A stretch of 64,000 bases of DNA, taken from assembly GCA_963779415.1 (NCBI GenBank), contig CAVZYA010000001.1, positions 1,120,001 to 1,184,000 of the forward strand, in the 5' to 3' direction. The translations under genes and the position numbers were made by a program. Below are positions 4,151 through 45,832 of the stretch, piece after piece (position 1 is the stretch's first letter; the number at the start of each line of letters is the position of its first letter). The notes under the pieces were generated by a model. That model searched no databases and was not told the DNA's origin. It saw only the letters and a program-made list of their open reading frames with translations. This DNA comes from an uncultured Acidobacteriota bacterium. Lineage in GTDB: Bacteria; Acidobacteriota; Thermoanaerobaculia; UBA5066.

Positions 4151-5035
4151 CTATCTCTCGGAGGGGACCGACGGAATCTCCGCCGAGTCGGCGTGGTCTG
4201 TCCGCATGGCCCGCGCCTCGAGCGTCCTCCGCAGCCGGGTCCGGAACGTCAGGACCTCGAGCTGACGCAGCCGCTCGGCTTCGCCAGACCGCCTCCGCTG
4301 CTGCTCCCGGGCAACGGCGAGTAGGAGCGCGCTCCGGACGTACTCCCTCCGCTCGTCCGAGCGGCCGAAGCGCCTCTCGAGAAGTCGGCGCCACGGCAGC
4401 TCCAGAGCGGATGCGTCGTCCGCCGGAAGGAATCCGAGTCGGACCTCTTCGTCGAGCTCGCGCCGGACCCGGGCACGCTCGAGGAGAAGGGCCGGAGCCC
4501 ACGCCAGAAGAGCCACGCCGAGGCTCGCGGCAAGTAGCGCCCCCGCGGCCGCCCGCGGCGACGGCCTCGCGAGCGCGGATCCGGCCGCCGCGAGGAGGGG
4601 CGGCGCGACGAGGGCCCAGGCCGCGAGCGCGATCTTCCGTTCTCCCGACTCCGCCGACGCCCGGACCATCTCGGCCGAAAAGAGGGAGACGGCGGCGAGG
4701 ACGCCGGCACCCGCCGCTCCGGCGACGAGCGCCCCCTCGCCGCGGAGGCTCACGGAAGCGACGGCTCCCGCGGGAAGGCCGAAGGCGAAGGCCGAAAGGA
4801 CCCCTTCCTCCGTGATGGGGAGCCATCGAGTCCAGGCGGCTGCGAGCGCGAGAACCAGAACTGCGAGAACGGCGGCGCCGGCTTCGGCCGGATCGGGAAA
4901 GGCGGACGGACCCCGCCCGAACGCGGCAAATCCCGCGAGGAGCCCGGCCGGCGCGAGCGCCAGAGGCCCCCTCATCCGGCCGATCCCGGCGGCGGCGGCC
5001 GCCGCGAGGAGGCGCAGCGCGATCTCGACCGTCAC
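4151..5035 (-). CDS. Hypothetical multi-pass membrane protein (degenerate PrsW-like?)
   Basis: Several hydrophobic Ala/Leu helices, then charged tail RRELDEEVRLGFLP; coupled to ribF stop. Confidence 0.55.
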   Translation of the reverse strand: MTVEIALRLLAAAAAAGIGRMRGPLALAPAGLLAGFAAFGRGPSAFPDPAEAGAAVLAVLVLALAAAWTRWLPITEEGVLSAFAFGLPAGAVASVSLRGEGALVAGAAGAGVLAAVSLFSAEMVRASAESGERKIALAAWALVAPPLLAAAGSALARPSPRAAAGALLAASLGVALLAWAPALLLERARVRRELDEEVRLGFLPADDASALELPWRRLLERRFGRSDERREYVRSALLLAVAREQQRRRSGEAERLRQLEVLTFRTRLRRTLEARAMRTDHADSAEIPSVPSER

Positions 5036-27145: not shown

Positions 27146-27928
27146 CTACGTTAAGACCCGCTTCCCGGCCCTGTCAATGAATCGCGGGGGCGATTCGAGG
27201 AGACGCCGCACCCAGGCCGAGAGAAGCGGCGCGAGTGTCTCGTCCGCGGCCAGCCGGACCCACTCGGCCCGTGTCGACGAGACGAGCAGGGCGAGCGCCG
27301 CGCCCCGCGGCGTCCGCGGGTGCCGGATCAACGCCTCGCGGACCGCCGGCCGCCCCGCCCACCGGGGGATCGCCGCGAGGGCCGCGAGAGCCGACGCCTC
27401 CGGACGCCCGACGGTGAGCCAACGGACGACGTCGTCGGGGACGAGGCGGGAGTTCTGGCAGAGCGCCTCGAGGATCATCGGGTCATTCTCCTCGAGGAGG
27501 GGAAGGAAGAGATCGCGGTCGGCGAGCCGCGAGAGCGCCGCCTTCTCCCCCCGGGAGAGCTGCCGGAGCATCGCGAGGAGCCTGCGGCTCGCCGCCTGGC
27601 GGACGGGACCCGGCGCGCGGACCTCGCGGGCGACGGCGGCGAGATCCCGCCACGAGAGGTCCTCGAGAACATGGAGCGCCTCGGCCCGCGGCGTGGAAGG
27701 GTGCTCGGCGAGAGCGCGGCGAATGGCCCGCGCCCGCAGGAGCGAGCGCATACGGACGATCCGCTCGACGATCTCCGGCGTCGCGAACGGATGCCGGAGG
27801 ACCAGGAGGACCTCACGCTCGTGAAAGCTCTCGAGGTGCTCCTCGACGAGGGCGGCGAGCGTCGGCCCGTCGGCCTCTCCGATCCGGACGGCCCAGGGGA
27901 CCTCCCGGGGCGACTCTTCCTCCGTCAC
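27146..27928 (-). CDS. Hypothetical helical-repeat protein
   Basis: Repeated L.HP.TP / L.QN.RL motifs; GTGA overlap with trpA stop. Confidence 0.7.
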   Translation of the reverse strand: MTEEESPREVPWAVRIGEADGPTLAALVEEHLESFHEREVLLVLRHPFATPEIVERIVRMRSLLRARAIRRALAEHPSTPRAEALHVLEDLSWRDLAAVAREVRAPGPVRQAASRRLLAMLRQLSRGEKAALSRLADRDLFLPLLEENDPMILEALCQNSRLVPDDVVRWLTVGRPEASALAALAAIPRWAGRPAVREALIRHPRTPRGAALALLVSSTRAEWVRLAADETLAPLLSAWVRRLLESPPRFIDRAGKRVLT

Positions 27929-28733
27929 GCCCGCCGCACGGCGGCGGCGAGGCTGCGGACCCGTCCGGCGGCGGCTGCGACGGGGTCTCGGCCTTCCCGC
28001 ACCGCGTCCTCCGCCGACGAGACTACCGCACTGCCGACCACGACTCCGTCGGCGAGACGCGCCACCGACGCGACCTGCTCCGGCGAGGAGATGCCGAAGC
28101 CGACGGCCAGAGGAAGACGGGGAGCCTGCGTCCTGACCCGGGTGATGAGCGCCCCCAGCCCTTCCGAAAGCTCCGCGCGGGCGCCGGTGACGCCCGTCCG
28201 CGAGACGAGGTAGAGGAAACCGCGCGACAGGAGAGCGGCCTTCCGGAGCCTCTCGTCCGGCGAGGTGGGGGCGACGAGGGAGACGAAATCGAGCCCGGCC
28301 TTCCGGAGGCGCGCGGCGAATCCCTTCGCCTCCTCGAACGGCAGGTCCGTCAGGAGAACGCCGTCGGCCCCCGCCTCCTTTGCCCGCCGCGTGAAGAGCT
28401 CCTCCCCCATCGCGAGGATCGGGTTCGAATAGCCGAAGAGGACGACCGCGACGGAGAGCCCGTCGCGGCGAAGGCGCTCGAGGAGGTCGAGGACGGCGGG
28501 CAGCGTCGTCCCGCCGGCGAGGCTCCGCTCGCTCGCCCGCTGGATGACCGGCCCGTCGGCGATCGGGTCGCTGAACGGAATCCCCAGCTCGAGGAGGTCG
28601 GCCCCCGCCTCCTCGAGCGCGGGGAGGAGCCTCGCCGTCGTCGCGAGGTCCGGATCGCCCGCCTCGACGAAGACGACGAGGGCGGCTCGGTTCTCCTTCG
28701 CGGCGCGCGCGAAGGCCCTGCCGATCCGCGTCG

Positions 28734-28737
<4 letters not shown>
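27925..28737 (-). CDS. trpA: Tryptophan synthase alpha subunit
   Basis: [30 protein letters not shown]. Confidence 0.96.
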
Positions 28738-29942
<1,205 letters not shown>

Positions 29943-29950
<8 letters not shown>

Positions 29951-31319
29951 GTCGCACCTCCCCGACGAAGGCCGCGACCTTCGCCTCGTCCTTGATCCCG
30001 GGCGACGACTCGACGCCCGACGCCGTGTCGACGGCGAACGGGTGCGCCGCGAGGATCGCCGCGCGGACGTTTTCGGCGCGAAGCCCTCCCGCGACGACGA
30101 ACGGGCGGCGGACGCCGAGGGCGAGAAGACGCGACCAGTCGAAGACCGTCCCCGTCCCCCCCGGCCGGCCCCCCGCCGCCGCGTCGAAGTGAAGGACGTC
30201 GCCCGGCCAGAGAAGCGCCTCCTCGAGGTCGTCCCGCCCCACGCCGACCGTCTGCCAGAGGGCGGGGCCGAACGGAGGCTCCACCGTCCCGGGAGGATCG
30301 GTCAGCTGGACGGCGTCGGGCCGGACGAAGGAGGCCGCCGCACGGACCTCTTCCGTCGTGTTCCCGCCGAAGACGGCGACCACCCCTTTGCCGCCACGGG
30401 CCGCTTCGGCGAGAGCTCGTCCCCGCTCGAGCGTGAGACGCCTCGGCGAACGTGGCGAGAAGATCAGCCCGATCCAGTCGACGCCGAGGCGGAGGCAGAG
30501 CTCCACGTCCTCCTCGCGGGTCAGGCCGCAGATCTTCACCTCGGTCGTGCCGCGTCCGAGGAGGTAGCGGAGCGCCTTGGCGCCGTCTCCCGACTTCAGG
30601 AGCGTCTCGCCGACGAGAAACGCACCGTACCCGGCCGCCGAGAGCCGCGCGACCTCCGCCGCGGTCCTCACGCCGCTCTCGGCGACGCGGACGACGCCCT
30701 CCGGGATCCCGCGCCCCGCCGCCTCGACCGCGGCGAGGTCGACGGTGAACGTCGCGAGGTCGCGGGCGTTCACGCCGACGATCTCCGGCGCGACCGCGAG
30801 GGCTTCGGGGACCTCGCCCGCCCCGTGCGCCTCGACGAGGACCGCGAGGCCGCGCGCCCGGGCGGCGGCATGGAGGCGCGCGAGATCGGCGGCCGGAAGC
30901 GCCGAGACGATCAGGAGGACCGCATCCGCGCCGAGGGAGAGCGCGACGTCGAGCTGCATCTCGTCGACGACGAAGTCCTTCATCAGGACCGGGAGCCCCG
31001 AGGCCGCCTTCGCCCTCGGGATCCAGGCCGGATCGCCCCCGAAGAAGTCCTGCTCGACGACGACGGAGAGAGCGGCCGCGCCGCCGCGCCGGTAAGCCCG
31101 GGCCGTCGCCTCGATCTTCTGCGAGGCGTCCGGGAGAAGAATCCCGGCGGAGGGGGATCGGTGCTTGATCTCGGCGATCACGGCGGGAGGGCGGCGGACC
31201 GCCTCGAGGAAGCGGCGCCCGTCCGACGGAAGAGCCGGCCGGCCGGTGGCCGTGAACTCCCCCCGGGCGAGGCGCGCGCGCTTGGCCGCGAGGATCTCGG
31301 CGAGAATCGTCTCGCTCAC
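29943..31319 (-). CDS. trpCF: Bifunctional indole-3-glycerol phosphate synthase / phosphoribosylanthranilate isomerase
   Basis: [26 protein letters not shown] then VKICGLT, AGGL, DTASGVE in one frame. Confidence 0.9.
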
Positions 31320-32356
31320 GCCGCCCCCTTCGAGATGGCCACGAGGAGAAGGAGAGCCTCGCGCGCGGCTCCGCCGTCGATCGCCGCGGCGGCCAGGCCG
31401 ACCCCGTCCCGGAATCCGTCGGCGCGCCCGGCGACGACGAGCGCGGCGGCCGCGCTCATCAGGACCGTCTCGCGATGCATCCCGAGGTCGCCGCCGAGGA
31501 TCGCATGGAGGATCGCCACGTTTCGCGCGACGTCGCCCCCCTTCAGACCGTCCAGGTTTCCTTCCTCGAGGCCGAAGTCGGCGGCCGAAAGGTCGAAGAG
31601 GCGGATCCCTCCCGGCGTCACCTCCGCGACACGGGTCCGGCCGATCGGGAGAAGCTCGTCCCCGCCCGCCTCGTTCGAGTAGACGAAAACCCGCTCGGCG
31701 CCGAGGAGGGCGAAGGCCCCCGCCACCACCTCGATCCGCTCGGGCCGGTCGACGCCGACGATCTGCCGCGGGACCCGCGCCGGGTTGCAGAGCGGCCCCG
31801 CGAGGTTGAAGACCGTCCGGATCCCCAGCTCTCGCCGGAGCGGCGCGACCTTCTTCATCGCCTCGTGGTAGATCGGGCGCGAAGAAGAACCCGATCCCCG
31901 CGCGGCGGAGCGCCTCGACGGCCCTCTCCGGCGGCATCTCGATCTCGACACCGAGCCCCGAGAGGACGTCCGCGGAGCCGCAGGTGGAGGAGACCGCCCG
32001 TCCACCGTGTTTGGCCACCGTGACCCCCGCCCCGGCCACGACGAGCGCCGTCGCCGTCGAGATGTTGAAGGTCAGGAGGCCGTCCCCGCCCGTCCCGCAG
32101 ACGTCGACGGCGCTCCGGGCGAGAGCCTCGTCGACGGGCGGACGGCGCGAGCGGTCCCGGAGAACGTCCACGAGCCCCGCGACGTCCTCGGCGGCCTCTC
32201 GCCGCGCGCCGCGAGGGCCGCGACGAACGCCGCCGCGAGGGCCCCCGGCTCGGGCCCGTCGAAGAGATCCTCGAACGCCCCGCGAGACTCCTCGCGCGAG
32301 AGGTGACCGCCGCGCGTCACGGCACGGAGCGCCTCCCGAAGCCTCTCGCCGCTCAC
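31316..32356 (-). CDS. trpD: Anthranilate phosphoribosyltransferase; frameshifts ~32200 and ~31870
   Basis: [36 protein letters not shown] spread over three frames. Confidence 0.9.
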
Positions 32357-32920
32357 GCGACCCCCCGCTCCACGAAGTTCCGGAGAAGCCTCTCTCCATC
32401 CGGCGTCAGGATCGACTCCGGGTGGAACTGGACGCCGGCGAGGGGACGGCTCCGGTGGACGAGCCCCATGACGAGGCCGTCCGCCTCGGCCGTGAGGACG
32501 AGGTCGGGCGGAACGGAGGAGCGCTCGACGACGAGCGAGTGGTACCGCGTCGCCGTGAAGGGGTTCGGGAGGCCGCGAGAAGATCCCGGTGCCGGAGTGC
32601 GCGATCTCCGATGTCTTGCCGTGCATCAGGACGGGGGCGCGGACGACCCGGCCGCCGAAGACGAGGCCGAGGGCCTGATGGCCGAGGCAGACGCCGAGGA
32701 GCGGGATCCGGTCGTTCCTCTCGATCAGCGCGCAGGAGACGCCGGCGTCCTCCGGCCGGCCCGGGCCCGGCGAAATGACGATCCGGTCGGGGCGCATCGC
32801 GAGGAGGGCGTCGGCCGAGGCCGTGTCGTTCCTGAGGACGCGGACGTCGCCGTCCACCCGCGCGAGGAACTGCACGAGGTTGAACGTGAACGAGTCGTAG
32901 TTGTCGATGACGAGGATCAT
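32353..32920 (-). CDS. trpG: Anthranilate synthase component II (glutamine amidotransferase); frameshift ~32580
   Basis: [30 protein letters not shown]; RYHSL and VQFHPES in next frame. Confidence 0.92.
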
Positions 32921-34318
32921 CCGCCGAAGGCTCCGTACTCCGCCGCGGCGTCCACGGCGCGCATCAGCGCCCGCGCCTTGTTCTCGCACTCGTCCGCCTC
33001 GGCGGCGGGGACCGAGTCGGCCACGATGCCGGCCCCGGCCTGGATGTGGAGGACGCCGTTCACGACGACCGCCGTCCGGATGGCGATCGCCACGTCGAGG
33101 TTCCCGGCGAAATCGACGTACCCGACGGCCCCGCCGTAGGGGCCGCGCCGGACCGGCTCGAGCGCCTCGATGATCTCCATCGCCCGGATCTTCGGCGCGC
33201 CCGACAGGGTCCCCGCCGGGAACGTCGCCGCGAGGGCGTCCACGGCGTCCCGTCCCGGCGCGAGCGACCCGACGACGCGGGAGGCAAGGTGCATGACGTG
33301 CGAGTAGCGCTCGACGGAGAAGAACTCCTTCACCGTGACGCTCCCCGGGACGGCGACCCGCCCCACGTCGTTGCGGCCTAGGTCGACGAGCATGACGTGC
33401 TCGGCGCGCTCCTTCTCGTCCGCGAGAAGCTCGCGCTCCAGGGCGAGATCTTCCTCGCGCGTGGCGCCGCGCGGGCGCGTTCCCGCGAGCGGGATCGTCT
33501 CCACCTCGGCCGGGCCTTCCCGCCGCCGGACGCGGACGAGCCTCTCCGGGGAGGCTCCGAAGATCGTCCCGTGCGGCGTCCGGAGAAAATACTGGTAGGG
33601 CGACGGGCTGATCCGGCGGAGCGCGCGGTAGAGAGCGAACGGGTCGCCGGTAAACGGCGCCGACCAGCGCCGCGAGAGGACGACCTGGAAGATGTCGCCC
33701 GCCCGGATGTGCTCTTTCGCCTCCTCGACCGCCGCCATGTAGTCGGCGCGCGGAAGGCTCTCGGTCCACGCCATCTCGGGCCCCGCGCGGCGTGAAGAGA
33801 CCGCCGGTGCCTCTGAGAGAAGGGAATCAGCGAGTTGGCCCAGACGCTCCCGCGACTCGGCCTGGCTCGGCGGGTGGAACTCGCGCAAGGAAGAGCAGCC
33901 GGTGCTTGACGTGGTCGAAGGCGATGACGTCGTCGAAGAGTCCGAACCATCCGTCCGGAAGGCCGACGGGATCGGGGTTCTTCGAGGGGAGCCGCTCCAG
34001 CCGCCGGACGGCGTCGTAGCCGAGATAGCCGACGGCGCCTCCCGTGAAAGGGGGGTCGTCCTCTCCCCGCGGGAGCGGCTCGTGCGGAACCGTCTTGAGC
34101 GCGGCGAAGGGATCCCCTCCCGCCGCCGGGAGCGACGCCGACGGCGCCGTTCCGAGGAACGACCAGCGTCCCAGCCGCTCGCCCCCTTCGACCGACTCGA
34201 GAAGAAAGCAGGGCTCCGCTCGTGAGAGGAGCGCGCGCATCACGGCCACGGGCGTCGTCATGTCGGCCGGCCGCTCCACCGAGACGAGGAGCCGCGAGGC
34301 GGCCGCCGCGGGCGTCAC
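32917..34318 (-). CDS. trpE: Anthranilate synthase component I; frameshift ~33885
   Basis: [18 protein letters not shown]; [31 protein letters not shown]. Confidence 0.93.
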
Positions 34319-35745
34319 GCCGGCCTCTGCTCGCCCCGGCGCTCGCGGAGCTTCCGCTCGACGTCGGAGGGCGAGAGGCCGCGCGCGGTCAGGAGCACCG
34401 CGAGATGGTAGAGGAGGTCCGCCGCCTCTCCCGCGAGGGCGCCGTCGTCCTCGACGAGGGCGGCGAGCGCCGTTTCGACCCCCTCCTCGCCGACCTTCTT
34501 CGCGATCCTCGCGATCCCCGCGTCGAGGAGATGGTTCGTGTACGAGCCGGCGACCGGATTCTTCTGCCGGTCCGCCACGATGGAGAAGAGCGGCCCGAGG
34601 TCGAGCGCGGGTGCGGCCGCCGCGGCGTCGAGCGTCCGGGCGACGCGGAAGCACGAGCGGCTCCCCGTGTGACAGGCCGGCCCCTCGGGAACGACGTCGT
34701 AGACGACGGCGTCGCCGTCGCAGTCGACCGAGATCGAGGCGACCCGCTGGACGTTCCCCGACGTCTCCCCCTTCTTCCAGAGCTTCTTGCGCGAACGGCT
34801 GAAGAAATGCGAGAAGCCGGTCGTCCGCGTCAGCTCCAGCGCTTCCTCGCTGGCCCAGGCGAGCGTCAGCACCTCTCCGTTCCGGACGTCCCGGACCACG
34901 ACGGGGACGAGCCCGGCCTCGTCGAACGTGACGGGAAGCGGGCCCGCCGCCTCCGGGGCCGGCGCCACGCCGCCGAGACGGACGGGGATCCCCGCCGAGG
35001 AGAGGGCCTGCTTCACCTCGCCGATCGTGAAGACGCGCTCGTGGAAGACCCCCGCGGCGAGGACCGCGTCGGCCCCCCCGTCGCGAACCGCCGCCACGAA
35101 GTGCGCGAGCTTTCCGGCGCCGCCGGAGGCGACGATCGGCACGTCGGCCGCGCTCCGGACGGCGCGCAGCATCTCGACGTCGAATCCTTCCCGTGTCCCG
35201 TCCGCGTCGACGGAGGTGAGGAGGATCTCCCCCGCCCCGAGCGACGCCGCCTCGGCCGCCCACTCGACGACGCCGCGCCCCGTGATCCGCCGGCCGCCGT
35301 GCGTCGTGACGACGAGCCGCACGGCGCCCCCGTCACCGCGGACTCTCTTGCCGTCGAGCGCGAGGACGACGCACTGCGCCCCGAACTGCTCCGAGAGGCG
35401 CCGGATCAGCTCCGGCTCGGCGGCGGCCGCCGTGTTGACCGTCACGCGGTCGGCTCCCGCCTTCAGGAGCGAGTCGGCGTCCTCGACCGACCGGACCCCG
35501 CCTCCGACCGTGAAGGGGATCGAGAGGACCTCGGCCACGCGGGAGACGAGCGAGACGAGCGTCCCGCGGTTCTCGTGCGCCGCGGCGATGTCCAGGAACG
35601 TCAGCTCGTCGGCCCCTTCGGCCTCGTACCGCACCGCCGCCTCGACGGGGTCTCCCTCGTCGCGGAAGTCGACGAACCGCGTCCCTTTGACGACCCGCCC
35701 CGCCGCCACGTCGAGACAGGGGATCACCCGGACCGCCAGCGTCAT
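34315..35745 (-). CDS. hisF: Fused HisF (IGP synthase cyclase) - HisI - HisE
   Basis: [18 protein letters not shown]; then [26 protein letters not shown]; [18 protein letters not shown], all in one ORF. Confidence 0.9.
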
Positions 35746-36503
35746 CGCGTCCTCCCTTCCGCGGCGAGAGCGGCCGAGAGCCGCGTCACGCTCGTCGCCC
35801 CGAGGTGCAGGGCCCTGCCGAAGATCGCCCCTCGCGCGCCTCCGGCAAGGGCCGCGTCCACCGGAGAGAGGTCTTCCTCGCCGCGCATCCCGCCCGAGGC
35901 GAGGATCTCTCCGGGAAAGACCGCGCGGACCGAGGCGAGAAGCTCGAGGTTCGGCCCCTCCATCGCCCCGTCGCGTGCCACGTCGGTGACGAGGAGCGCC
36001 GTGACGCCCAGAGAAGAAAGCTCCTTCGCGACGGATACCGCATTTCCCGCACCGGCGTCCCGAGTCCAGCCGGAGGTCGTGGGCCGGCCGTCCTTGCAGT
36101 CCAGCGCCACGACGAATCGGGCGGAAGAAAATCTTCTTAGAAGGGTAAGAAAGACCGTCCGGTCGAGAAACGGCAGGCTGCCGAGAACGACCCGGTCGCC
36201 CCTCTTCCTTTCAAAGAAATCCTCGACGGCCTTTTCCGTGCGCAGTCCTCCCCCGACTTGAACCGGAATTCCCGCTCTTTCGACAATCTTGAGGATCACC
36301 GTCCGGTTCTCCCCCCGGCCGAAGGCCGCGTCGAGGTCCACGACGTGGATCCCGTCGGCCCCTTCGCTCTCGAAACGCCGGGCCGCCTCCACCGGGTCGA
36401 CATCGTAGACCGTCGTCTTCTCGAGGTCGCCCCGGAGCAGACGGACGACGCGCCCCTCCTTCAGGTCGAGGGACGGCCAGAGCGCGAGGCGGTCCGCGCT
36501 CAC
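35742..36503 (-). CDS. hisA: ProFAR isomerase
   Basis: [37 protein letters not shown]. Confidence 0.93.
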
Positions 36504-37117
36504 ACGGGCTCCGGAGCGAGGAAGTTCCGGAGGAGCTTCCGCCCCGCGTCGGAAGACTTCTCGGGATGGAACTGGCACCCCCAGACGTTCCCGCATTGGA
36601 TGGCGGCCGGGAAGGAACCGCCGTACTCGCACGTCGCGGCGACGTCCTCGGGGTCGACCCCCTCCGGGCGGTACGAGTGGACGAAGTAGACGTACGTTCC
36701 GGACGGGACGCCGGAGAGGAGCCCGCCCTCCCTCGCGACGTCGAGCGCGTTCCAGCCGACGTGCGGTATCCGGACGCCTCCGCCGAAAGGAACGATCCGC
36801 CCTCGCACGACGCCGAGGCCGGGTGTCTTTCCGTGCTCCTCGCTCTCGTCGAAGAGGAGCTGGAAGCCGAGGCAGAGTCCGAGGAGGCGCGAGCCGTTCC
36901 GGACGGCTTCGAGGAGCGCCGAGTCGAGGCCGGTCTCCTCGAGCCGTTTGCGGGCCGGGCCGAACGCGCCGACGCCGGGAAGGACGATCCGGCCCGCGGA
37001 CGCGACGTGCGCCGGATCCGCCGTCAGGAGCACCTCCGCCCCGAGGCGCCGGAAGGCGCGCGTCACGGAGGCGATGTTTCCCACGCCGTAGTCGACGAGC
37101 GTCACGGAGTCCGTCAT
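36500..37117 (-). CDS. hisH: Imidazole glycerol phosphate synthase glutaminase subunit
   Basis: DYGVGN, LPGVGAF, GLCLGFQ, YFVHSY, QFHPEKS. Confidence 0.95.
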   Translation of the reverse strand: MTDSVTLVDYGVGNIASVTRAFRRLGAEVLLTADPAHVASAGRIVLPGVGAFGPARKRLEETGLDSALLEAVRNGSRLLGLCLGFQLLFDESEEHGKTPGLGVVRGRIVPFGGGVRIPHVGWNALDVAREGGLLSGVPSGTYVYFVHSYRPEGVDPEDVAATCEYGGSFPAAIQCGNVWGCQFHPEKSSDAGRKLLRNFLAPEPV

Positions 37118-37710
37118 GCCGTCAGCGTCCCTTTCGTCGAGAGGATCCCGGTCCCCGTCCGCTCCGCGGCGATCCGGAGGGCCCGCGCCGCCGACTTGAA
37201 GACCGCCTCGGCCGCGTGGTGGCCGTTTCTTGCCCGGATCACGTCGACGTGCAGGTTCAGCTTTCCGCGAAAGGCCGCGGACTTCCAGAACTCCTCGACG
37301 AGGGCGAAGGGGAACTCCTTCGTCACGAGGAGGAGCTCCTTGTCGACCGGCGACTCGAAGACGAGGAACGGGCGCCCGGAGAGGTCGACGACGGATCGCG
37401 CGAGCGCCTCGTCGAGAGGGACCGTGCACTCGCCGAACCGCTCGATCCCCGCCCGGTCGCCGAGGGCCGTCGCGAGCGCGTCCCCGAACGCGAGCCCCAC
37501 GTCCTCGACGGTGTGGTGCGCGTCGACGTGCGTGTCGCCCGTCGCGCGGACGAAAAGGTCGAATCGTCCGTGCTTCGCGACCGCCTCCAGCATGTGCGAG
37601 AGAAACCCGACGGGCGTCTCGACGTCCGCCTTTCCCGTCCCGTCGAGCTCGAGCTCGAGCGTGACCGACGTCTCCTTCGTCGTCCGCGAGACCTTTCCGA
37701 CCCGGCTCAT
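37114..37710 (-). CDS. hisB: Imidazoleglycerol-phosphate dehydratase (monofunctional)
   Basis: RTTKET, HML, DAHHTVED, NGHHAAEAVFK. Confidence 0.96.
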   Translation of the reverse strand: MSRVGKVSRTTKETSVTLELELDGTGKADVETPVGFLSHMLEAVAKHGRFDLFVRATGDTHVDAHHTVEDVGLAFGDALATALGDRAGIERFGECTVPLDEALARSVVDLSGRPFLVFESPVDKELLLVTKEFPFALVEEFWKSAAFRGKLNLHVDVIRARNGHHAAEAVFKSAARALRIAAERTGTGILSTKGTLTA

Positions 37711-38792
37711 CGCTCCTCCTTCCTCCGGACGATCTCCCGGAGCTCCGCGAGGAAGAGGTCATTCTCCTCGCGCCGCCCGACCGTGACGCGGAGCCTTCCC
37801 GGCGCGGACGGTCCGAGGTCGCGGACGAGGATCCCCCGCCCGAGAAGCTCCTTCCCCACCCGCTCCGCCTCGCCTCCCGGCGGCTCGACGAAGAGAAAGT
37901 TCCCCGCGGCGGGCGCCACCTTCGCGCCCATCCGCGAAAGCTCGCCGGCGACCCGGTCCCGCTCCCGGACGATCTCGGCGACGCGCGCACGCGCCGGCGC
38001 CGGATTCTCGAGAAGGGCGACGGCCAGCTCCTCCGCCGCCTGGTCGACGCTGAACGGGAGGACCGCCTTTCCGACTTCCCGGGCGAGGTCGGGACGGGCG
38101 ACGGCGTACCCGATCCGGAAGCCGGCGGCCGAGAAGGCCTTCGAGAAGGTCCGGAAGACGACGACGTTCTTCCCTTCGTCGACGAGCGGAAGAGCGCTCG
38201 CCTCCGCGGGGGCGAAATCGACGTACGCCTGGTCGACGAGAGCGACCGGAAAGGCGTCTGCGAGCTTTCGTAGGAACGGGAGTCCGGCCGCCGTCCCGGT
38301 CGGGTTGTTCGGCGAGCAGATCAGCGGGACCGTCCGCGGCGGCTCTCCGGCCGTTCGGAGGATCGCGGCCTCGTCGAACGCGAACTCGTCCCCCACGAGC
38401 GGGACCGTGACGACGTCGGCCTGCGCGATGGCGGCGAGCTGCGGGTAGAGCGAGAAGGTCGGCGGAGTCAGGAGGAGCCGCCCTCCCCCGGCGAAGACGT
38501 TGATCGCGGCGAGGACGATCTCGCCCGATCCGTTCCCGACGACGATCTCCTCCGGGCTTCGCCCGAGCAGGGCCGCGATCGCGCTCCGGAGCCTCCCCGA
38601 CCCGAACTCCGGATAGAGCGCCCAGCGCCGCCCCTTGAGCCGCGCGAGGACCTTCTCCTTCACCTCGTCCGGGACGTCGAAGGGCGATTCGTTGAAGTCC
38701 AGCTTCGCGCGGACCGGCACGGGAAGATCGGAGACGAGCGCGTAAGACTTCAGCGCCGCGATGCCGGGACGGGCCGGAGTTCCCGCCGTCAC
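37707..38792 (-). CDS. hisC: Histidinol-phosphate aminotransferase
   Basis: KLDFNESP, GNGSGE, CSPNNPTG, RTFSKA..AGFRIGY. Confidence 0.93.
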   Translation of the reverse strand: MTAGTPARPGIAALKSYALVSDLPVPVRAKLDFNESPFDVPDEVKEKVLARLKGRRWALYPEFGSGRLRSAIAALLGRSPEEIVVGNGSGEIVLAAINVFAGGGRLLLTPPTFSLYPQLAAIAQADVVTVPLVGDEFAFDEAAILRTAGEPPRTVPLICSPNNPTGTAAGLPFLRKLADAFPVALVDQAYVDFAPAEASALPLVDEGKNVVVFRTFSKAFSAAGFRIGYAVARPDLAREVGKAVLPFSVDQAAEELAVALLENPAPARARVAEIVRERDRVAGELSRMGAKVAPAAGNFLFVEPPGGEAERVGKELLGRGILVRDLGPSAPGRLRVTVGRREENDLFLAELREIVRRKEER

Positions 38793-40075
38793 GAGAGCCT
38801 CCGCCCCGCGGAACGTTCGTGCGCGACGAGCCCCTCGAACCGGGCCAGCGTGGCCGCCGCCGGGCCGAGCCGACGCGCCGCGCCCGGCGGGACCTCGACG
38901 CTCCGCCCCCATCGGAAGAAGTCGCGGACCGAGAGCCCCGAGAAGCTCCGCCCCGCGCCTCCCGTCGGGAGAACGTGGTTCGGGCCCGCCACGTAGTCAC
39001 CGAACGCCGTCGGCGTCGAAGAGCCGACGAAGAGCGCTCCGGCCGTGGGAAGCAGCGCGCGGGCGAGCTTCTCCGCCGGCTTTCCCATCACCTGAACGTG
39101 CTCGGCGGCGACGTCGACGCCCGCGGAGACGGCCTCTCCGAGTCCGGAGAAGACGACGATGCGTCCTCTCTTCCGGAGGGACGCCCGGATGACGGAGCGG
39201 ACGGATCCCGCTTCGAAGGCTCCGACCTGCGTGACGACTTCCCGCGCGACCGCCTTCGCGAGCCTCTCCGAGTCCGTGAAGAGGAGCCCGATCGCGTCCG
39301 GGTCGTGCTCGGCCTGCGCGAGGAGGTCCGCGGCCACGAGGTCGGCGCGGGCGTCTCCGGAGGCGACGACGAGGACTTCGGACGGGCCGGCGGGAAGATC
39401 CACCGACACAAGCCCCGAGACGAGGTGCTTGGCCGCCGCGACCCACCGGCTGCCGGGGCCGACGATCTTCGCGCAGCCGGCCACCGAGACGAGCCCCGCG
39501 ATCCCGTGGGCGCCCCCCGCGAGGAGCACCTCGCGGATTCCGAGCTCTCGAAGCGCCCACCGGAGCTCCGCGCTCCCGAGGTAGGCGCGCGGCGGCGTCG
39601 CGACGACGATTCTCTGGACGCCCGCCACCTGTGCGGGGACGACCCCCATCAGGAGCGACGAGGGATAGAAGGCGCGCCCGCCGGGGACGTAGACCCCGAC
39701 CGAGTCGAGAGGGAAGGGCTTCTCGACGAACCGGACGCCGAGCGCGTCCCGGAAGGAGAACCCCCGCGGAATCTGGCGCCGGTGGTACGTCTCGATCCGT
39801 CGCCGCGCCAGCCGGAAGGCGCGGACGAATGAGCGGTCGACCGCCAGGGACGGACCGAGAGAGGGATCGACGAGGATCTTCTTAGAAGGAAGAGAGACCC
39901 CATCGAATCTATGGACGAACTTCGCGAGAGCCCCTCTTCCCCTTCTAAGAATCTCTTCAACTATCGGTAGGACTTCGCGCAGCGTTCGAAAATCGACTTC
40001 GCCGCGCCGTCCCGCAAGAAGCCGTTCCAGCTCTTTTCTTCCCTTCACGGTTCTTGCGTCGACGATCTTCAGCAT
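38789..40075 (-). CDS. hisD: Histidinol dehydrogenase
   Basis: GVYVPGG, AGPSEV, DLLAQAEHD, GDYVAGPNHVLPT. Confidence 0.95.
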   Translation of the reverse strand: MLKIVDARTVKGRKELERLLAGRRGEVDFRTLREVLPIVEEILRRGRGALAKFVHRFDGVSLPSKKILVDPSLGPSLAVDRSFVRAFRLARRRIETYHRRQIPRGFSFRDALGVRFVEKPFPLDSVGVYVPGGRAFYPSSLLMGVVPAQVAGVQRIVVATPPRAYLGSAELRWALRELGIREVLLAGGAHGIAGLVSVAGCAKIVGPGSRWVAAAKHLVSGLVSVDLPAGPSEVLVVASGDARADLVAADLLAQAEHDPDAIGLLFTDSERLAKAVAREVVTQVGAFEAGSVRSVIRASLRKRGRIVVFSGLGEAVSAGVDVAAEHVQVMGKPAEKLARALLPTAGALFVGSSTPTAFGDYVAGPNHVLPTGGAGRSFSGLSVRDFFRWGRSVEVPPGAARRLGPAAATLARFEGLVAHERSAGRRLS

Positions 40076-41697
40076 GCCTCCCCCACGGCGGCCCGGAGGC
40101 GCCGGACGAGATCCGCGACCTCTTCGCGGCGGGAGACGAGGGCCGCGCGCCCGGCGATCAGGACGGCCCGGCTCCTCGCGATCGTTTCGATCTCCGTAAG
40201 GCCGTTCGCGGCCATCGTGGAGCCGGTCTCGATCAGGTCGACGACGGCGTCCGTCAGGCGAAGGGCGGCCGCCAGCTCGACGGAGCCCGCGAGCGGGACG
40301 ATCTCGAACGGGACCTTCCGCGCGTCGAAGAAGCGGGCGGCCGACCGGCGGTACTTCGTCCCGACGCGGATCGGGTGCCCGTTCGGGCGGGGCGGATCCC
40401 CCGTACGGCCGATGAGCGAGAGGCGACAGACGCCGAAGGGGAACTCCATCGGCGAGAAGACCTCCTCGCCCGACTCTTCGACGCGGTCGCTTCCGACGAT
40501 CCCGAGGTCGGCGCCGCCGTGGGCGACGTAGGTCGGGACGTCGTCGTCCTTCAGGAGGAGAAGCTCGACCCGCCCGGAGAGGTCGGCGAGGACGAGCCGC
40601 CGGCCGTCCGGCTCCGGAAGCTCCACGCCCGCGGTGCGCAGCACGCCGAGCGCCTCCGGCAGGAGCCGCCCCTTCCCTACGGCGAGACGGAGCGGCCTCC
40701 GCGCGCCCGGGCTCTCCGGCCCCGCGAGAGCCGTCGAGAGCGCTTCGAGGCCGACACAGAAGCCGAGAGCCGGCATCGGCGCGCCGAAGCGGCCGAGGAG
40801 GCCGTCGTACCGTCCCCCCGAAGCCAGAGGCGCCGCGCCGTCCGCGGCGTCGATCGCGAACGTGATGCCGGTGTAGTAGGGGGCCTCCGGAGTTCCGGCG
40901 AGGTCGACGACCACGGAGATCCCGGGGCGCGCCGCTCGTACCGCGGCTCCCGCGCGGAGGAGCGCCTCCGCCCCTTCGCGGAGGACCGGCGCGCCGAAGA
41001 GCGGCGAGGCGGGATCGAATCCGGAAAGGAGCGACCGGGCGATCTCGGCCGCTCGATCGCGGGTCGCGCCCGCTTCGAAGAGACGCTTCTCGACCGAGCT
41101 GACGCGCCGCGCCCGCGCTTCTTCCTCGGCAGCCCCGAGCGAGGCCCCATCCCCGCGGGCGAGGGCCGGAGCCGTGGCCGCGAGGAGCGACGGGAGAAGC
41201 CCCGCGAAGCCGAGCGTCACATGGAGCCGCTCAGTCGGGATCTCTGCGAGGCAATCGAGCGCGAGGGCGAGCATCGTTTCGTCCGCCGTGAACGACGGGT
41301 CGCCGTACCGTTCGGCCCCCACCTGCGCGAACTCGCGGGCCCGGCCGACGCCGCTCGGCTCGTCCCGGACGACGTCGCCGCGATAGAAGAGGGAAAGCGG
41401 AAACGCATCGGGCGAGAGGCGAGGCGCCACGACGCGGGCCGCCATCGGCGTGAAGTCGGCCCGAAGCGAGAGAGTCTGCCCCTCCCGGTCGAGGAACCGG
41501 TAGAGGCGCTCGTCCCCCTCGGCCGTGACGCCCCGGTAGGGGTCGGCGTAGTCGAGGACCGGAAGGATCACCTCCGCGAGGCCCGCCGCGACGAGGCGCG
41601 AGACGACCGCGTCTTCCGCCTTTCGACGGCGCGCGGCCGCCTCGAAAAGGAAGGCCGAGACGCCGCGCGGGAGATTCGGATCGGGGGAGGGGCTCAT
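40069..41697 (-). CDS. hisZ: Fused HisZ (ATP-PRT regulatory subunit) - short-form HisG
   Basis: HisRS-like LPRG, LRADFT, REFAQVGAE, YYTG, GGRYD followed in frame by AVGKGRL, DVPTYV, GSVE, DLIETGST. Confidence 0.88.
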   Translation of the reverse strand: MSPSPDPNLPRGVSAFLFEAAARRRKAEDAVVSRLVAAGLAEVILPVLDYADPYRGVTAEGDERLYRFLDREGQTLSLRADFTPMAARVVAPRLSPDAFPLSLFYRGDVVRDEPSGVGRAREFAQVGAERYGDPSFTADETMLALALDCLAEIPTERLHVTLGFAGLLPSLLAATAPALARGDGASLGAAEEEARARRVSSVEKRLFEAGATRDRAAEIARSLLSGFDPASPLFGAPVLREGAEALLRAGAAVRAARPGISVVVDLAGTPEAPYYTGITFAIDAADGAAPLASGGRYDGLLGRFGAPMPALGFCVGLEALSTALAGPESPGARRPLRLAVGKGRLLPEALGVLRTAGVELPEPDGRRLVLADLSGRVELLLLKDDDVPTYVAHGGADLGIVGSDRVEESGEEVFSPMEFPFGVCRLSLIGRTGDPPRPNGHPIRVGTKYRRSAARFFDARKVPFEIVPLAGSVELAAALRLTDAVVDLIETGSTMAANGLTEIETIARSRAVLIAGRAALVSRREEVADLVRRLRAAVGEAC

Positions 41698-43207
41698 CTC
41701 GTCGCTCCGGTGGCTGAGGGTGGCGCCGAGGCGAAGAGACCCCGTTTCCGTGCGGGAAGCCGGGAGACGAGGTCCGCCGCGGAGACGGACCGCCCGGTGA
41801 AGAGCGCCGCCTGTCCGGCCGCCTGCGCGAGAAGGAACGTAAAGCCGTCCACGACCTCGCACCCCGCCGCGCGCGCCGCGCGAGCGAGCGCCGTCCCTCC
41901 TTCCCGGTACGGCGCGTCGACGACGAGGAGGCCGGGGACCAGAATCGAAGCCTCGCAGGGGAGCGGGTCGTCGGCGCCGAGACCCAGCGGTGTCGCGTTG
42001 ACGAGAACCCGGGGAGAGACCCCCGGGAGATTCTCTGAATGGAATACAGAACCCGAGCGGACCGCGAAAGCCTCTCCCTTCTCGCGATCGCGCGTGCTCA
42101 CGAAGACCTCGTACCGCTTCTTTCGGAGAATTCCGACGGCGATCCGAGCCGTCCCTCCGGCTCCGAGGACGAGGGCACGTTCTCCCTCTTTCGCAGAGGG
42201 AATCAACTCGTCCAGCGCCTCGCCGTCCGTGTTCTCCCCGCGGACGGCGTCCTTTCCTTCGAAGAGAAGCGTGTTCATCGGCTCGCGTCGCGCCGGCGAT
42301 CGCGGCGGCTTCTTCCTTGAACGGGATCGTCACGGACGCCCCCGAGAGGGGAAGCCTGAGGCGAGCGAGGCCGTCGCGAAGGGCCGGCAGCTCGTTCACG
42401 AGTGAGCGGAGGGCGAAGGGAACGTAGAGGGCCTCCTCGTCGAGGGCCTCGAAGTTCGCGTTCTGGAGGGCGGGCGAGAAGCGAGTGGGAGACACGCGAG
42501 CCGAGGAGGGCGACGAGACGAGAGGCGCGTCGCGCCCGGCCCACGCCGTAGACGTCGCGGAGGTCCCGCGCCTGAAGCTGTCCCGGCGCCGTGGCGCCGC
42601 CCGGCACGATCGAGGCGAACATCAGCGGGGCGCCGAAATAAGGAGCGAGAACTCGCGTGGCTATCCCGGCCTCTCCCATGCCGAAGAGGGAGACGTTCGA
42701 TCCCTCGAACGATTTCTGGGCTTCGAGAAGGCGGACGGCGTCGTTCGAGTCGTTTGCCGTCCCGACGACCTTCACGTATCGGGCGCCGGTCGCGGCCATC
42801 CGCTCGGCGAGGCCGGCGACGTCGGGCGGAAGCCCTTCGAGATCGTGGACGGAGACGACGACCTTCGAGGGAGCGAGGCCCATGAGGTCGGCGTTCGTTC
42901 CGGCCCGGTACTCCACGTCCGACGAAGTCGAAGCCCGCCGCGAGCGCCTTCGAGAGGAGCGATCGGGCCTCTTCGGCGCTCCCCGAGAAACCGCCCCCCT
43001 CCGCCGTCGACCGGAGAGTGGCGACCAGGGTCTTCCCTTCGAAGCACGCGCGCAGCGCGCCGAAGTCTCCCGGTTCCCGGAGGGCGTCGAGCCGGACCTC
43101 GACGGCGGTCGAGGTCTCTCGCGAATGCCGCCGCCTCGCGGGCCTCCGCCATCGAGGAAGGCCCGAACGGAGCCGACGATCCGCGTCTTTTCCGCGCTCA
43201 GGACCAA
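41694..43207 (-). CDS. Type I 3-dehydroquinate dehydratase / shikimate dehydrogenase fusion (AroD-AroE), several frameshifts
   Basis: VEVRLD, TLR..EGG, SVHD, GMGE.G..R, APGQ; HS, SVTIPFK, NTD, LGAGG, NATPLG across frames; start uncertain. Confidence 0.85.
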
Positions 43208-43236
43208 ACGAAAACCCCCTCCGGTCCGGAGGGGGT
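43206..43236 (-). terminator. Attenuator terminator hairpin
   Basis: ACCCCCUCCG-GAC-CGGAGGGGGU 10-bp stem followed by UUUCGUUU on - strand, just upstream of aroD. Confidence 0.88.
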
Positions 43237-43306
43237 CGAAGTCGCTGCTTCTGGCCTTCGCGCCCTCCGGACAACTCCCTGTCCGGCGGCGAGAACGCCC
43301 GCCGGC

Positions 43307-43342
43307 TCAGTTGTGGTGACCGTGCCAGTGAAGAGCCAGCAT
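43307..43342 (-). CDS. His/Trp-rich attenuator leader peptide MLALHWHGHHN
   Basis: ATG CTG GCT CTT CAC TGG CAC GGT CAC CAC AAC TGA; lies between promoter and terminator upstream of the aro-his-trp operon. Confidence 0.85.
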   Translation of the reverse strand: MLALHWHGHHN

Positions 43343-43351
43343 GAGACGCGA

Positions 43352-43377
43352 ATTGAAACCCGCCCGGGGGAGCGCTG

Positions 43378-43381
<4 letters not shown>
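43352..43381 (-). promoter_or_regulatory. Sigma70-type promoter of the aro-his-trp operon
   Basis: Perfect TTGACA (43381-43376, overlapping cysS stop), 18 nt, TTCAAT; the leader ATG follows 9 nt later. Confidence 0.6.
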
Positions 43382-44834
<1,453 letters not shown>

Positions 44835-44920
44835 GACGGGCGATTCTCGACGACCGCTGCGGATTTCGCCAGCGAGCGTGCGGAAAGCGGCCTTCGGGTT
44901 CTGCGATACCCTTGGGCGCC

Positions 44921-45832
44921 ATGTTTCGATCGCCCGCCGCCGCCCCGCTGATTCTTCTCGTCGACGACGACCCTTTTCAGGCCGAGGTGGCGTCGTACAT
45001 CGCCTACGAGCTCGGCTGCGACTTCGACAGCGCGATCTCCGGAACCGAGGCGCTGGAGAAGGTCGCCGCGCGGAAGCCCGACCTGATCCTCCTCGACGTC
45101 CGGATGCCCGACCTCTCCGGCTACGAGGTCTGCCGCCGGGTGAAGACCGCGCCCGAGACCGCCGACACGCAGGTCATCTTCGTCACCGCCCGGACGGAGG
45201 AGGAGGACCTCCTCGCCGGATTCGAGGCGCTCGCGAACGACTACGTGACGAAGCCCTTCTCGGCCCGCGAGCTGAAGGCGCGCGTCAAGAACGCCCTCCG
45301 GGTCAAGAGCCTCCTCGACACGCTCACCGCGCGGACGCGGCTCCTCGAGGCGCAGCAGGAGATCACGGACCAGCTCGACTCCGACGACGTCACGTCGGAC
45401 GAGCTCCGGAGCGGCCGTCTCGGCCCGATCCTCGACCGGATCGCCGCCACGTTCGGAGCCGACGGAGCCACCCTCCATCTCCGGCGTCCGGGGCGCGGCG
45501 AGCTGGCCGCGATCGCCTCCTCCAAGTGGCCGGCCGGCGAGCCGCCGGCCCACCTCGCCGCGCTCGCGCTGCAGGAGGACCCGCGTGTGGAGCGCGCGCC
45601 GCGGATGCCGGGCGAAGTGCGGGACTCCGGCGGCGAGTGGACCATCTCGTCGGCGCCTCTCTGGGCGGGGCCCGAGCTGATCGGGACCCTCCGGCTCCAC
45701 CGCCGCGCCGTTCTCGCGCCCCCGGGGGAGTCTCCCGAGCTCGAGCACCTCGTCGCCTTCGCCTCGCACCTCGCCCGGACCCTTCACCGGGTCCAGCTGA
45801 CCGAGTCGTTGCGCGAGCGGGCCGCCGGCTGA
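44921..45832 (+). CDS. Response regulator receiver domain with C-terminal GAF-like domain
   Basis: LLVDDD, DLILLDVRMP, DYVTKPF. Confidence 0.85.
   Translation: MFRSPAAAPLILLVDDDPFQAEVASYIAYELGCDFDSAISGTEALEKVAARKPDLILLDVRMPDLSGYEVCRRVKTAPETADTQVIFVTARTEEEDLLAGFEALANDYVTKPFSARELKARVKNALRVKSLLDTLTARTRLLEAQQEITDQLDSDDVTSDELRSGRLGPILDRIAATFGADGATLHLRRPGRGELAAIASSKWPAGEPPAHLAALALQEDPRVERAPRMPGEVRDSGGEWTISSAPLWAGPELIGTLRLHRRAVLAPPGESPELEHLVAFASHLARTLHRVQLTESLRERAAG

Follow-up and report, generated by a model that had tools for sequence, protein, structure and literature searches.

A leader region with histidine and tryptophan codons ahead of an aroDE-his-trp operon in Thermoanaerobaculia: a probable dual-sensing transcription attenuator

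How might one leader serve an operon that makes the products of two biochemically separate pathways, histidine (His) and tryptophan (Trp)? The question is raised by a locus of an uncultured soil Acidobacteriota bacterium of the class Thermoanaerobaculia, in a 64,000-nt stretch of its genome referred to here as the window (assembly GCA_963779415.1, contig CAVZYA010000001.1, positions 1,120,001 to 1,184,000). Between cysS and the first operon gene, aroDE, a short open reading frame (ORF) with clustered His and Trp codons precedes a series of overlapping RNA helices. A first-pass annotation of the sequence had proposed that this leader senses both amino acids. The comparative evidence collected here, namely conservation of the leader, compensatory changes in its helices and codon contrasts among sister lineages, supports that proposal. 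It is therefore considered likely, on comparative sequence grounds, that the leader acts as a ribosome-mediated transcription attenuator which senses both His and Trp and controls the aroDE-his-trp operon.

Anatomy and conservation of the leader

The promoter-like site, the leader ORF, the helices and the terminator with its U tract were all recovered, at the positions and with the pairings first proposed, when the sequence was re-read (Table 1). The gene after the terminator does follow it directly; however, it is a fused aroD-aroE rather than aroD alone, and its TTG start (43207), which is aligned with ATG in one relative, falls within the terminator U tract. At the other end of the leader, the cysS stop codon (TGA, 43380-43378) lies within the TTGACA hexamer. 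The leader ORF has no Shine-Dalgarno sequence, and four His codons and one Trp codon fall within its last six sense codons, ahead of an operon that makes His and Trp.

Table 1 Features of the leader region and of the downstream operon, with positions in the window
Feature	Position	Strand	Details
-35-like hexamer TTGACA	43376..43381	-	read from the sequence; putative promoter element
-10-like hexamer TTCAAT	43352..43357	-	18-nt spacer to -35; 9 nt before leader ATG
Leader ORF MLALHWHGHHN and stop	43307..43342	-	36 nt, 11 codons, read from the sequence: ATG CTG GCT CTT CAC TGG CAC GGT CAC CAC AAC TGA (43342-43307)
His codons of leader ORF	43330-28, 43324-22, 43318-16, 43315-13	-	
Sole Trp codon of leader ORF	43327-25	-	
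Helix A (segments 1:2)	43305-43296 with 43291-43283	-	CCGGCGGGCG with CGCCGCCGG; -17.4 kcal/mol folded alone
Helix B (segments 2:3)	43286-43280 with 43273-43267	-	CCGGACA with UGUCCGG; -19.9 kcal/mol, z = -3.3
Antiterminator (segments 3:4)	43272-43263 with 43233-43224	-	GUCCGGAGGG with CCCUCCGGAC; 10/10 pairs, -28.5 kcal/mol, z = -3.7
Intrinsic terminator (segments 4:5)	43206..43237	-	11-bp stem 43237-43227 with 43223-43213, 3-nt loop, -21.6 kcal/mol
GGAGG, probable aroDE ribosome-binding site	43218..43222	-	in terminator 3' arm; 10 nt to aroDE TTG
Operon aroDE-hisZG-hisD-hisC-hisB-hisH-hisA-hisF/IE-trpE-trpG-trpD-trpCF-trpB-trpA	27925..43207	-	Pfam, tblastn
cysS	43378-44922		catalytic and C-terminal domains in different frames
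aroDE	41700-43207		four tblastn pieces
trpE	32920-34240		split
trpG	32356-32917		
trpD	31319-32341		split
trpB	28763-29898		
Terminator-like hairpin inside aroDE	42221-42249	+	11 pairs

Helix A begins 2 nt past the leader stop codon, so a ribosome terminating there would cover it. Its 3' arm has CCGG in common with helix B, and the antiterminator overlaps the 5' arm of the terminator in sequence; neighbouring helices are mutually exclusive because each shares bases with the next. The terminator stem is followed by UUUUCGUUUGG, the downstream tract being also given as UUUUCGUUU. Folding of the whole 151-nt leader gave -77.3 kcal/mol, compared with -63.0 +/- 4.4 kcal/mol for 200 shuffled sequences (z = -3.27, 0/200 as good). 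Across the 18-kb operon terminator-like sites are not enriched (10, against 7.5 +/- 2.8 in shuffles), and the leader terminator is one of only two such sites with 11 pairs. The region thus has three features of the attenuator class: a promoter-proximal ORF with clustered cognate codons, an intrinsic terminator and an overlapping antiterminator.

The intergenic DNA was matched in 24/24 other genomes of the same family. From 52 loci, 37 distinct sequences were obtained, and L011 was added by hand to give 38 distinct leaders. All 38 keep the pattern W-H/Y-x-H/Y-H-x-stop, with 1-3 Trp and 3-4 His codons, tyrosine (Tyr) replacing one His position in two of them; typical endings among the orthologues are ...HWHGHH., ...RHWHVHH., ...LWHWHH. 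and ...SWHWHWHH. Free variation is seen in the N-terminal half, at the two x positions, in the stop codon (TGA, TAA or TAG) and between CAC and CAT. Thirty further family loci were inspected, and a His+Trp leader was present in each of the 28 that include upstream DNA (the other two end at contig edges); their His codons number 2-4, with three slightly reduced variants, the lowest having two. Conservation of the ORF and of its Trp codon, which the first-pass annotation had named as a check, therefore holds in every relative with the same operon and with upstream DNA.

The promoter-like site is conserved in a similar manner. TTGAC stands at a constant distance from the leader start in 37/37 distinct family leaders, and the -10 position of relatives is occupied by TTCAAT, TCCAAT, TCTACT, TTTACT, CAGTAT or CAGAAT. 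Since the distance from this hexamer to the start codon is 6-10 nt in all family leaders, the transcript should begin at the leader ORF or only a few bases before it, which would account for the missing Shine-Dalgarno sequence. Judged from this spacing, leaderless or nearly leaderless translation of the ORF is probable.

Conservation of the RNA structure could not be read from RNAalifold on a plain MAFFT alignment, where the consensus was poor (13 pairs, -10.6 kcal/mol) because the helices are out of register between clades. Covariance-model realignments and an alignment-free comparison of cognate and non-cognate duplex energies were used instead. In the latter, the two arms of each helix in 14 representatives were compared with arms from different sequences in 5000 permutations. 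Cognate arms had the lower energies for helix A (-20.5 versus -18.3 kcal/mol, 2/5000 permutations as good), helix B (-21.5 versus -20.2 kcal/mol, 37/5000), the antiterminator (-17.0 versus -15.0 kcal/mol, 4/5000) and the terminator (-21.4 versus -18.2 kcal/mol, 0/5000). In the realignments, each of which favours the structure it was fitted to, 89.6% of cells were paired in the columns of helix B and the terminator, with a covariation score of 0.198 versus 0.111 in shuffles (0/500 as high), and 82.8% in those of helix A and the antiterminator in their own fitted alignment, with a score of 0.180 versus 0.145 (0/500 as high).

Considered singly, the helices differ in how well they fit fixed columns. 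Helix A pairs in 74.8% of cells, because its register differs between clades. Helix B pairs in 88.7%, with C:G changed to U:A in seven sequences; the antiterminator pairs in 88.6%, three of its pairs changing on both sides (G:C to A:U in six sequences, A:U to G:C in seven); and the terminator pairs in 90.3%, with four pairs changing on both sides. By eye, a one-base deletion in segment 3 of one clade (GUCCGGAGGG to GUCCGAGGG) is accompanied by matching deletions in segments 4 and 5, and in another clade GUCC:GGAC is replaced by the compensatory GGCU:AGCC. Stem covariation had also been singled out for checking, and compensatory change was found in all four helices by the cognate-arm test and the column counts.

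The reach of the element was explored with a pattern composed of the leader core and the terminator, scanned over about 186,000 genomes, one per prokaryotic species. Among the 35 matches, 29 were the same element in metagenome-assembled genomes (MAGs) titled Thermoanaerobaculia, Acidobacteriota, Acidobacteria or Holophagales. The six non-acidobacterial matches lay in coding or low-G+C DNA without the arrangement of promoter and ORF and were taken as chance. One of these (L059, about 4400-4634, in a MAG titled Alphaproteobacteria) has the frame HWHRHWHRRHWGWHRHRWHRRHWGHHHWHRHHW ahead of a terminator-like hairpin and probably represents an out-of-frame reading of the end of a Gly/Thr-rich gene. 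A search of genome contigs with the AroD part yielded no confirmed relative.

Leader codons and operon content in sister families

The same order contains sister families with a related attenuator, which has a TTGACA promoter (the hexamer is present in 22/24), a short ORF ending in ...EV.R or ...EV.G, a hairpin that begins in the stop codon and a terminator that abuts the first gene. The operons behind these leaders are not all alike: among 20 aroDE loci from sister families, 18 run directly into trpE and two into hisZG. Where aroDE-trp stands without his genes (17 genomes), the leader has 1-3 Trp codons, and its last ten codons contain no His codon in 16 genomes and one in the remaining genome; examples are ...SGWWWREDFR, ...NWWREVER, ...PWRWRERNR and ...GNGWRNEVNR. 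Two genomes (G075, G076) have a stand-alone hisZ-hisG-hisD-hisC-hisB operon behind the leader ...ARHPHHHEVNG, with four His codons and no Trp codon, and both also hold an aroDE-trp operon with a WW leader. In three genomes with aroDE-his-trp the leaders read ...THHWHHEVDR, ...THHWHHEVNR and ...AHRWHHEVRG; G045 and G050 were confirmed to have the full gene order, and the contig of G118 stops in hisH.

When the codons are aligned, the leader of the his+trp type reads CAT CAC TGG CAT CAC, that of the trp-only type AAT GGA TGG CGT AAC and that of the his-only type CAT CCG CAT CAC CAT. In this alignment, leaders of operons without his genes have lost every His codon, and those of operons without trp genes have a His codon in place of TGG. 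Leader codon content follows the operon products across relatives. Codon sensing predicts such tracking; a chance ORF, a functional peptide or a need for UGG in the RNA structure does not.

The distribution of hisD (PF00815) differs between the families: it was found in 52/57 genomes of the own family and in 6/56 of the large sister family (five above the family cut-off), and a match was present in 1/7 genomes of a third family, in an unpublished genome. Many genomes of the large sister family and the third family are >95% complete, and histidine auxotrophy is a possibility for the majority of these lineages. A protein search with HisZG in five sister-family genomes had found only 33%-identical HisS-like genes and was set aside in favour of the hisD Pfam.

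In the third family, leaders with Trp and Tyr codons (WYWYW or WYWY) precede aroDE-trpEGDCFBA (L128-L131 and L140; G028, G032, G036 and G034), for example MHSAESRWYWYWSDTR, ...CWYWYWSDTR and ...SWYWYNEATR. The one such operon that was read through, in G028, ends with a DAHP synthase carrying a ferredoxin-like regulatory domain. The Trp+Tyr leader is a second hybrid kind within the same attenuator family. In the sister family with HHWHH-type leaders, the gene before the leader in G045 and G118 (L135, L139) is not cysS; the ORF there ends in ...GWGYE..FVTFESRRKVFHPLP and looks, by eye only, like a PHP-type histidinol phosphatase.

Proposed mechanism and competing explanations

In the proposed mechanism, transcription would start a few bases upstream of the 11-codon ORF, which would be read as a leaderless message with His-Trp-His-Gly-His-His as its last six sense codons. 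Five RNA segments could then pair as a chain, 1:2 (helix A), 2:3 (helix B), 3:4 (antiterminator) and 4:5 (terminator). A ribosome that reaches the stop codon would cover segment 1; segments 2 and 3 would pair, the terminator would form, and transcription would end in the U tract at the start of aroDE. When either His or Trp runs short, a ribosome halted for want of charged tRNA at one of the His or Trp codons, 8-23 nt upstream of the stop, would leave segment 1 free to pair with segment 2, so that the 3:4 antiterminator forms in place of the terminator and the whole operon is transcribed. The antiterminated fold would also expose the GGAGG of aroDE, which the terminator hairpin may otherwise hide; the arrangement with GGAGG in the 3' arm of the terminator is also present in relatives. 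Ribosome position would thus set the fold, with either amino acid sufficing as the signal. That both pathways consume PRPP, as pointed out in the first-pass annotation, would be a speculative rationale for such an OR gate. In several clades the ORF is paired, in the minimum-energy fold of the untranslated RNA, with either segment 1 or segment 3; untranslated transcripts, including read-through from cysS, would then terminate.

Several observations weigh against this mechanism and have to be set beside the support. The lineages compared are kin, and the sequence counts overstate independent events, only some three to four of the contrasts being independent. The covariation of helix A and the antiterminator did not exceed that of shuffles (132/500) when scored on the alignment built for helix B and the terminator. 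The window leader has a single Trp codon among its six control codons, and the response to Trp may be weaker than that to His (compare PMC1183508). A consensus promoter scan found 0 sites in 18 kb, and so none at the leader, because TTCAAT is without A at position 2.

Folding with positions masked by a ribosome, another check named at the outset, gave a divided answer and, as a trend only, is weakly supportive. When the RNA was cut after segment 3, that segment was free, i.e. had at most 2 nt paired in the minimum-free-energy fold, in 19/38 sequences with the ribosome at Trp, compared with 2/38 with the ribosome at the stop and 4/38 with none. This trend over the 38 sequences is not shared by the window's own sequence, in which helix B forms under every ribosome mask. 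With RNA that ended after segment 4, each mask left the antiterminator as the minimum-energy fold in 22-33 of the 38 sequences. Since the antiterminator is favoured whatever the mask, any switch must be kinetic, and a kinetic switch, if real, would act as in known attenuators.

The strongest competitor, itself unlikely, is an attenuator that senses His only, in which the Trp codon survives from an ancestral Trp leader or is maintained because its UGG pairs with the CCGG of segment 3. Such a reading would fit the one Trp against four His codons of the window leader, and the minimum-energy fold of several clades does pair the ...CACUGG... of the ORF with segment 3. However, Trp is invariant in all 38 distinct leaders and occurs in two to three copies in several genera (WHWHWHH, LWHWHH), while the same scaffold has CAT, not TGG, at the aligned position before the stand-alone his operon. 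TGG is also retained, and the aligned His codons are lost, where the his genes are missing, and the Trp-only operons of relatives manage with 1-3 Trp codons.

Control that is mainly translational, in which the hairpin hides GGAGG, leader translation opens the hairpin and termination is minor, appears improbable. It would suit this reading that GGAGG belongs to the hairpin's 3' arm, that the aroDE TTG falls in the U tract and that this tract is interrupted (UUUUCGUUU). RNA data are also of interest here. Two metatranscriptome runs from one study, containing 0.07 of the sampled words, each gave one contig of about 250 nt from a close relative (95-99% likeness, covering 43129-43295), and both contigs span the relative's leader codons and cross the hairpin into aroDE, with DNA carry-over possible. 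As contigs they give neither transcript ends nor strand, and they were therefore not counted as support; uncovered parts of the stretch carry no information. Against a minor role for termination stands the G+C-rich stem of 11 bp followed by UUUU, a canonical intrinsic terminator that is conserved with covariation; moreover, the translational and termination modes are compatible with each other.

Still less probable is a role of the peptide itself, as a His/Trp-rich metal-binding or nascent-chain arrest peptide without codon sensing. The invariant W-H-x-H-H might be likened to a metal-binding or arrest motif, yet on the same scaffold it shifts to WWW, WYWYW or HPHHH with the genes of the operon, and the leader peptides have 11-18 residues with free N-termini. 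That the hairpin is merely the cysS terminator and the short ORF a chance frame is hardly credible, even though the element stands directly 3' of cysS and its -35 hexamer overlaps the cysS stop, because the ORF is conserved in its His and Trp codons and drifts in the codons around them. The sister loci already contradict such a reading: in relatives this attenuator is found ahead of aroDE or hisZ without cysS as neighbour (G050, G028, G075, G076), and codon content follows operon content. Sensing of both His and Trp by one attenuator thus remains the preferred reading.

The operon, known attenuators and implications

The gene order of the operon was established from Pfam scans of the window and of the intact same-genus orthologous locus in G003, together with tblastn, whose listing omits hisB, hisH or trpB in some loci through an overlap filter. 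The operon is about 15 kb long and adjacent genes mostly overlap by four bases. The stop codon of hisIE overlaps the GTG of trpE at about 34316, so that a second attenuator could not fit at the junction of the his and trp blocks, and no internal terminator separates them. According to tblastn of the whole genome, all genes of the operon are single-copy, and his and trp genes occur nowhere else. Four fusions were observed (L066 of G003; window 27925-43207): aroD-aroE (502 aa), hisZ-hisG (536 aa), hisF-hisIE (478 aa) and trpC-trpF (458 aa). Separate tblastn pieces were obtained in the sister family for hisZ and hisG, for hisF and hisIE, and for trpC and trpF.

Many genes of the assembly, which consists of three contigs and is 92% complete, are split across reading frames, including cysS, aroDE, trpE and trpD (Table 1), while their orthologues in G003 are intact. 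This suggests indel errors of the assembly more than pseudogenes; the split sites examined are not clearly at homopolymers.

Elsewhere in the same genome, outside the window (L143, G000:C1:1048180-1048330, minus strand), the covariance model has a weak match (27 bits) with a TTGACA-N17-TAGGCT promoter-like site, a Thr/Ile-rich leader ORF (MIPPLATRKRTTIRKTTPTAAGEEVL) and a terminator. By eye, the start of the next gene resembles that of aspartate-semialdehyde dehydrogenase (asd-like), and the site is probably a Thr/Ile attenuator.

Known leader families were searched for in Rfam. No match at gathering score was obtained in the 64-kb window, His_leader, Trp_leader, T-box and other riboswitches included, and at E <= 10 only unrelated families (E of at least 0.75) appeared in 43100-43500. 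The element thus lies outside the curated His and Trp leader families, though it would work like them. Full-text literature searches, with subscription journals outside their scope, likewise returned no His/Trp leader, no such his-trp operon and nothing on attenuators of Thermoanaerobaculia; the first-pass annotation had known of no hybrid His/Trp leader either.

Three of the nearest known systems are enterobacterial. The hisL leader has seven His codons in a row and, as here, combines a short ORF with clustered His codons, alternative helices and an intrinsic terminator, with his genes downstream; in contrast, the acidobacterial leader interleaves four His codons with Trp, has no Shine-Dalgarno sequence, is probably leaderless, and precedes an operon that adds aroDE and all trp genes. 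Escherichia coli trpL resembles it in having Trp codons a few codons before the leader stop and alternative antiterminator and terminator structures, whereas the present leader mixes one Trp codon (1-3 in relatives) with His codons and replaces the classical 1:2, 2:3 and 3:4 pairings with five segments and four helices. Leaders that respond to several amino acids are also known from enterobacteria, such as thrL (Thr and Ile) and ilvL / ivbL (Ile, Leu and Val), in which any shortage relieves termination. Like the present leader they mix codons for several amino acids in one peptide; however, they serve connected pathways, and here two biochemically separate pathways share one operon.

Two further systems share other parts of the arrangement. 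Leaderless poly-Cys short ORFs of mycobacteria are Cys-responsive attenuators, which also open the transcript, have no Shine-Dalgarno sequence and carry clustered codons for the amino acid that the downstream genes make; they belong to another phylum and concern another amino acid, and the leaderless state proposed here is deduced from how closely the start codon follows the -10 hexamer. The aro supraoperon of Bacillus subtilis has the order aroFBH-trpEDCFBA-hisC-tyrA-aroE and, as in the window, co-transcribes genes of the aromatic common pathway, trp genes and a his-related gene. It includes only hisC, whereas the operon studied here contains the complete his pathway and would be under leader-peptide control; control in Bacillus is by the TRAP protein (PMC4027176, PMC3064811).

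Taken at the level of the class, the evidence inclines us, by a modest degree, to the view that Thermoanaerobaculia possess one homologous family of probably leaderless attenuators whose regulatory codons were rewritten as operons were rebuilt. Under this view, the family would use Trp codons before aroDE-trp, Trp and Tyr codons before aroDE-trp-DAHP synthase, His codons before his, and His and Trp codons where his lies between aroDE and trpE. In the His/Trp form, one either-or sensor would then couple two amino-acid pathways that are unrelated, the first attenuator described to do so; its terminator would also mask the ribosome-binding site of aroDE, so that a single hairpin would govern both transcription and translation.

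Leader-peptide attenuation is a textbook mechanism, yet to our knowledge nearly all described cases come from Proteobacteria, Actinobacteria and some Firmicutes. The element would extend it to an uncultured class of Acidobacteriota and offer a new combination, in which His and Trp sensing is matched to an unusual operon that fuses both pathways. It could also be of use in compact designs for two-input amino-acid sensors. Furthermore, leader codon content may serve in annotation as a clue to operon function and to auxotrophy in MAGs, as in the largest sister family, where only 5/56 genomes have hisD above the cut-off. Finally, one scaffold with Trp-only, Trp+Tyr, His-only and His+Trp leaders provides a natural series for the study of regulatory evolution: the changes in leader codons are single-nucleotide steps that follow gene gain or loss, and they show the re-tuning of a cis-regulatory sensor.

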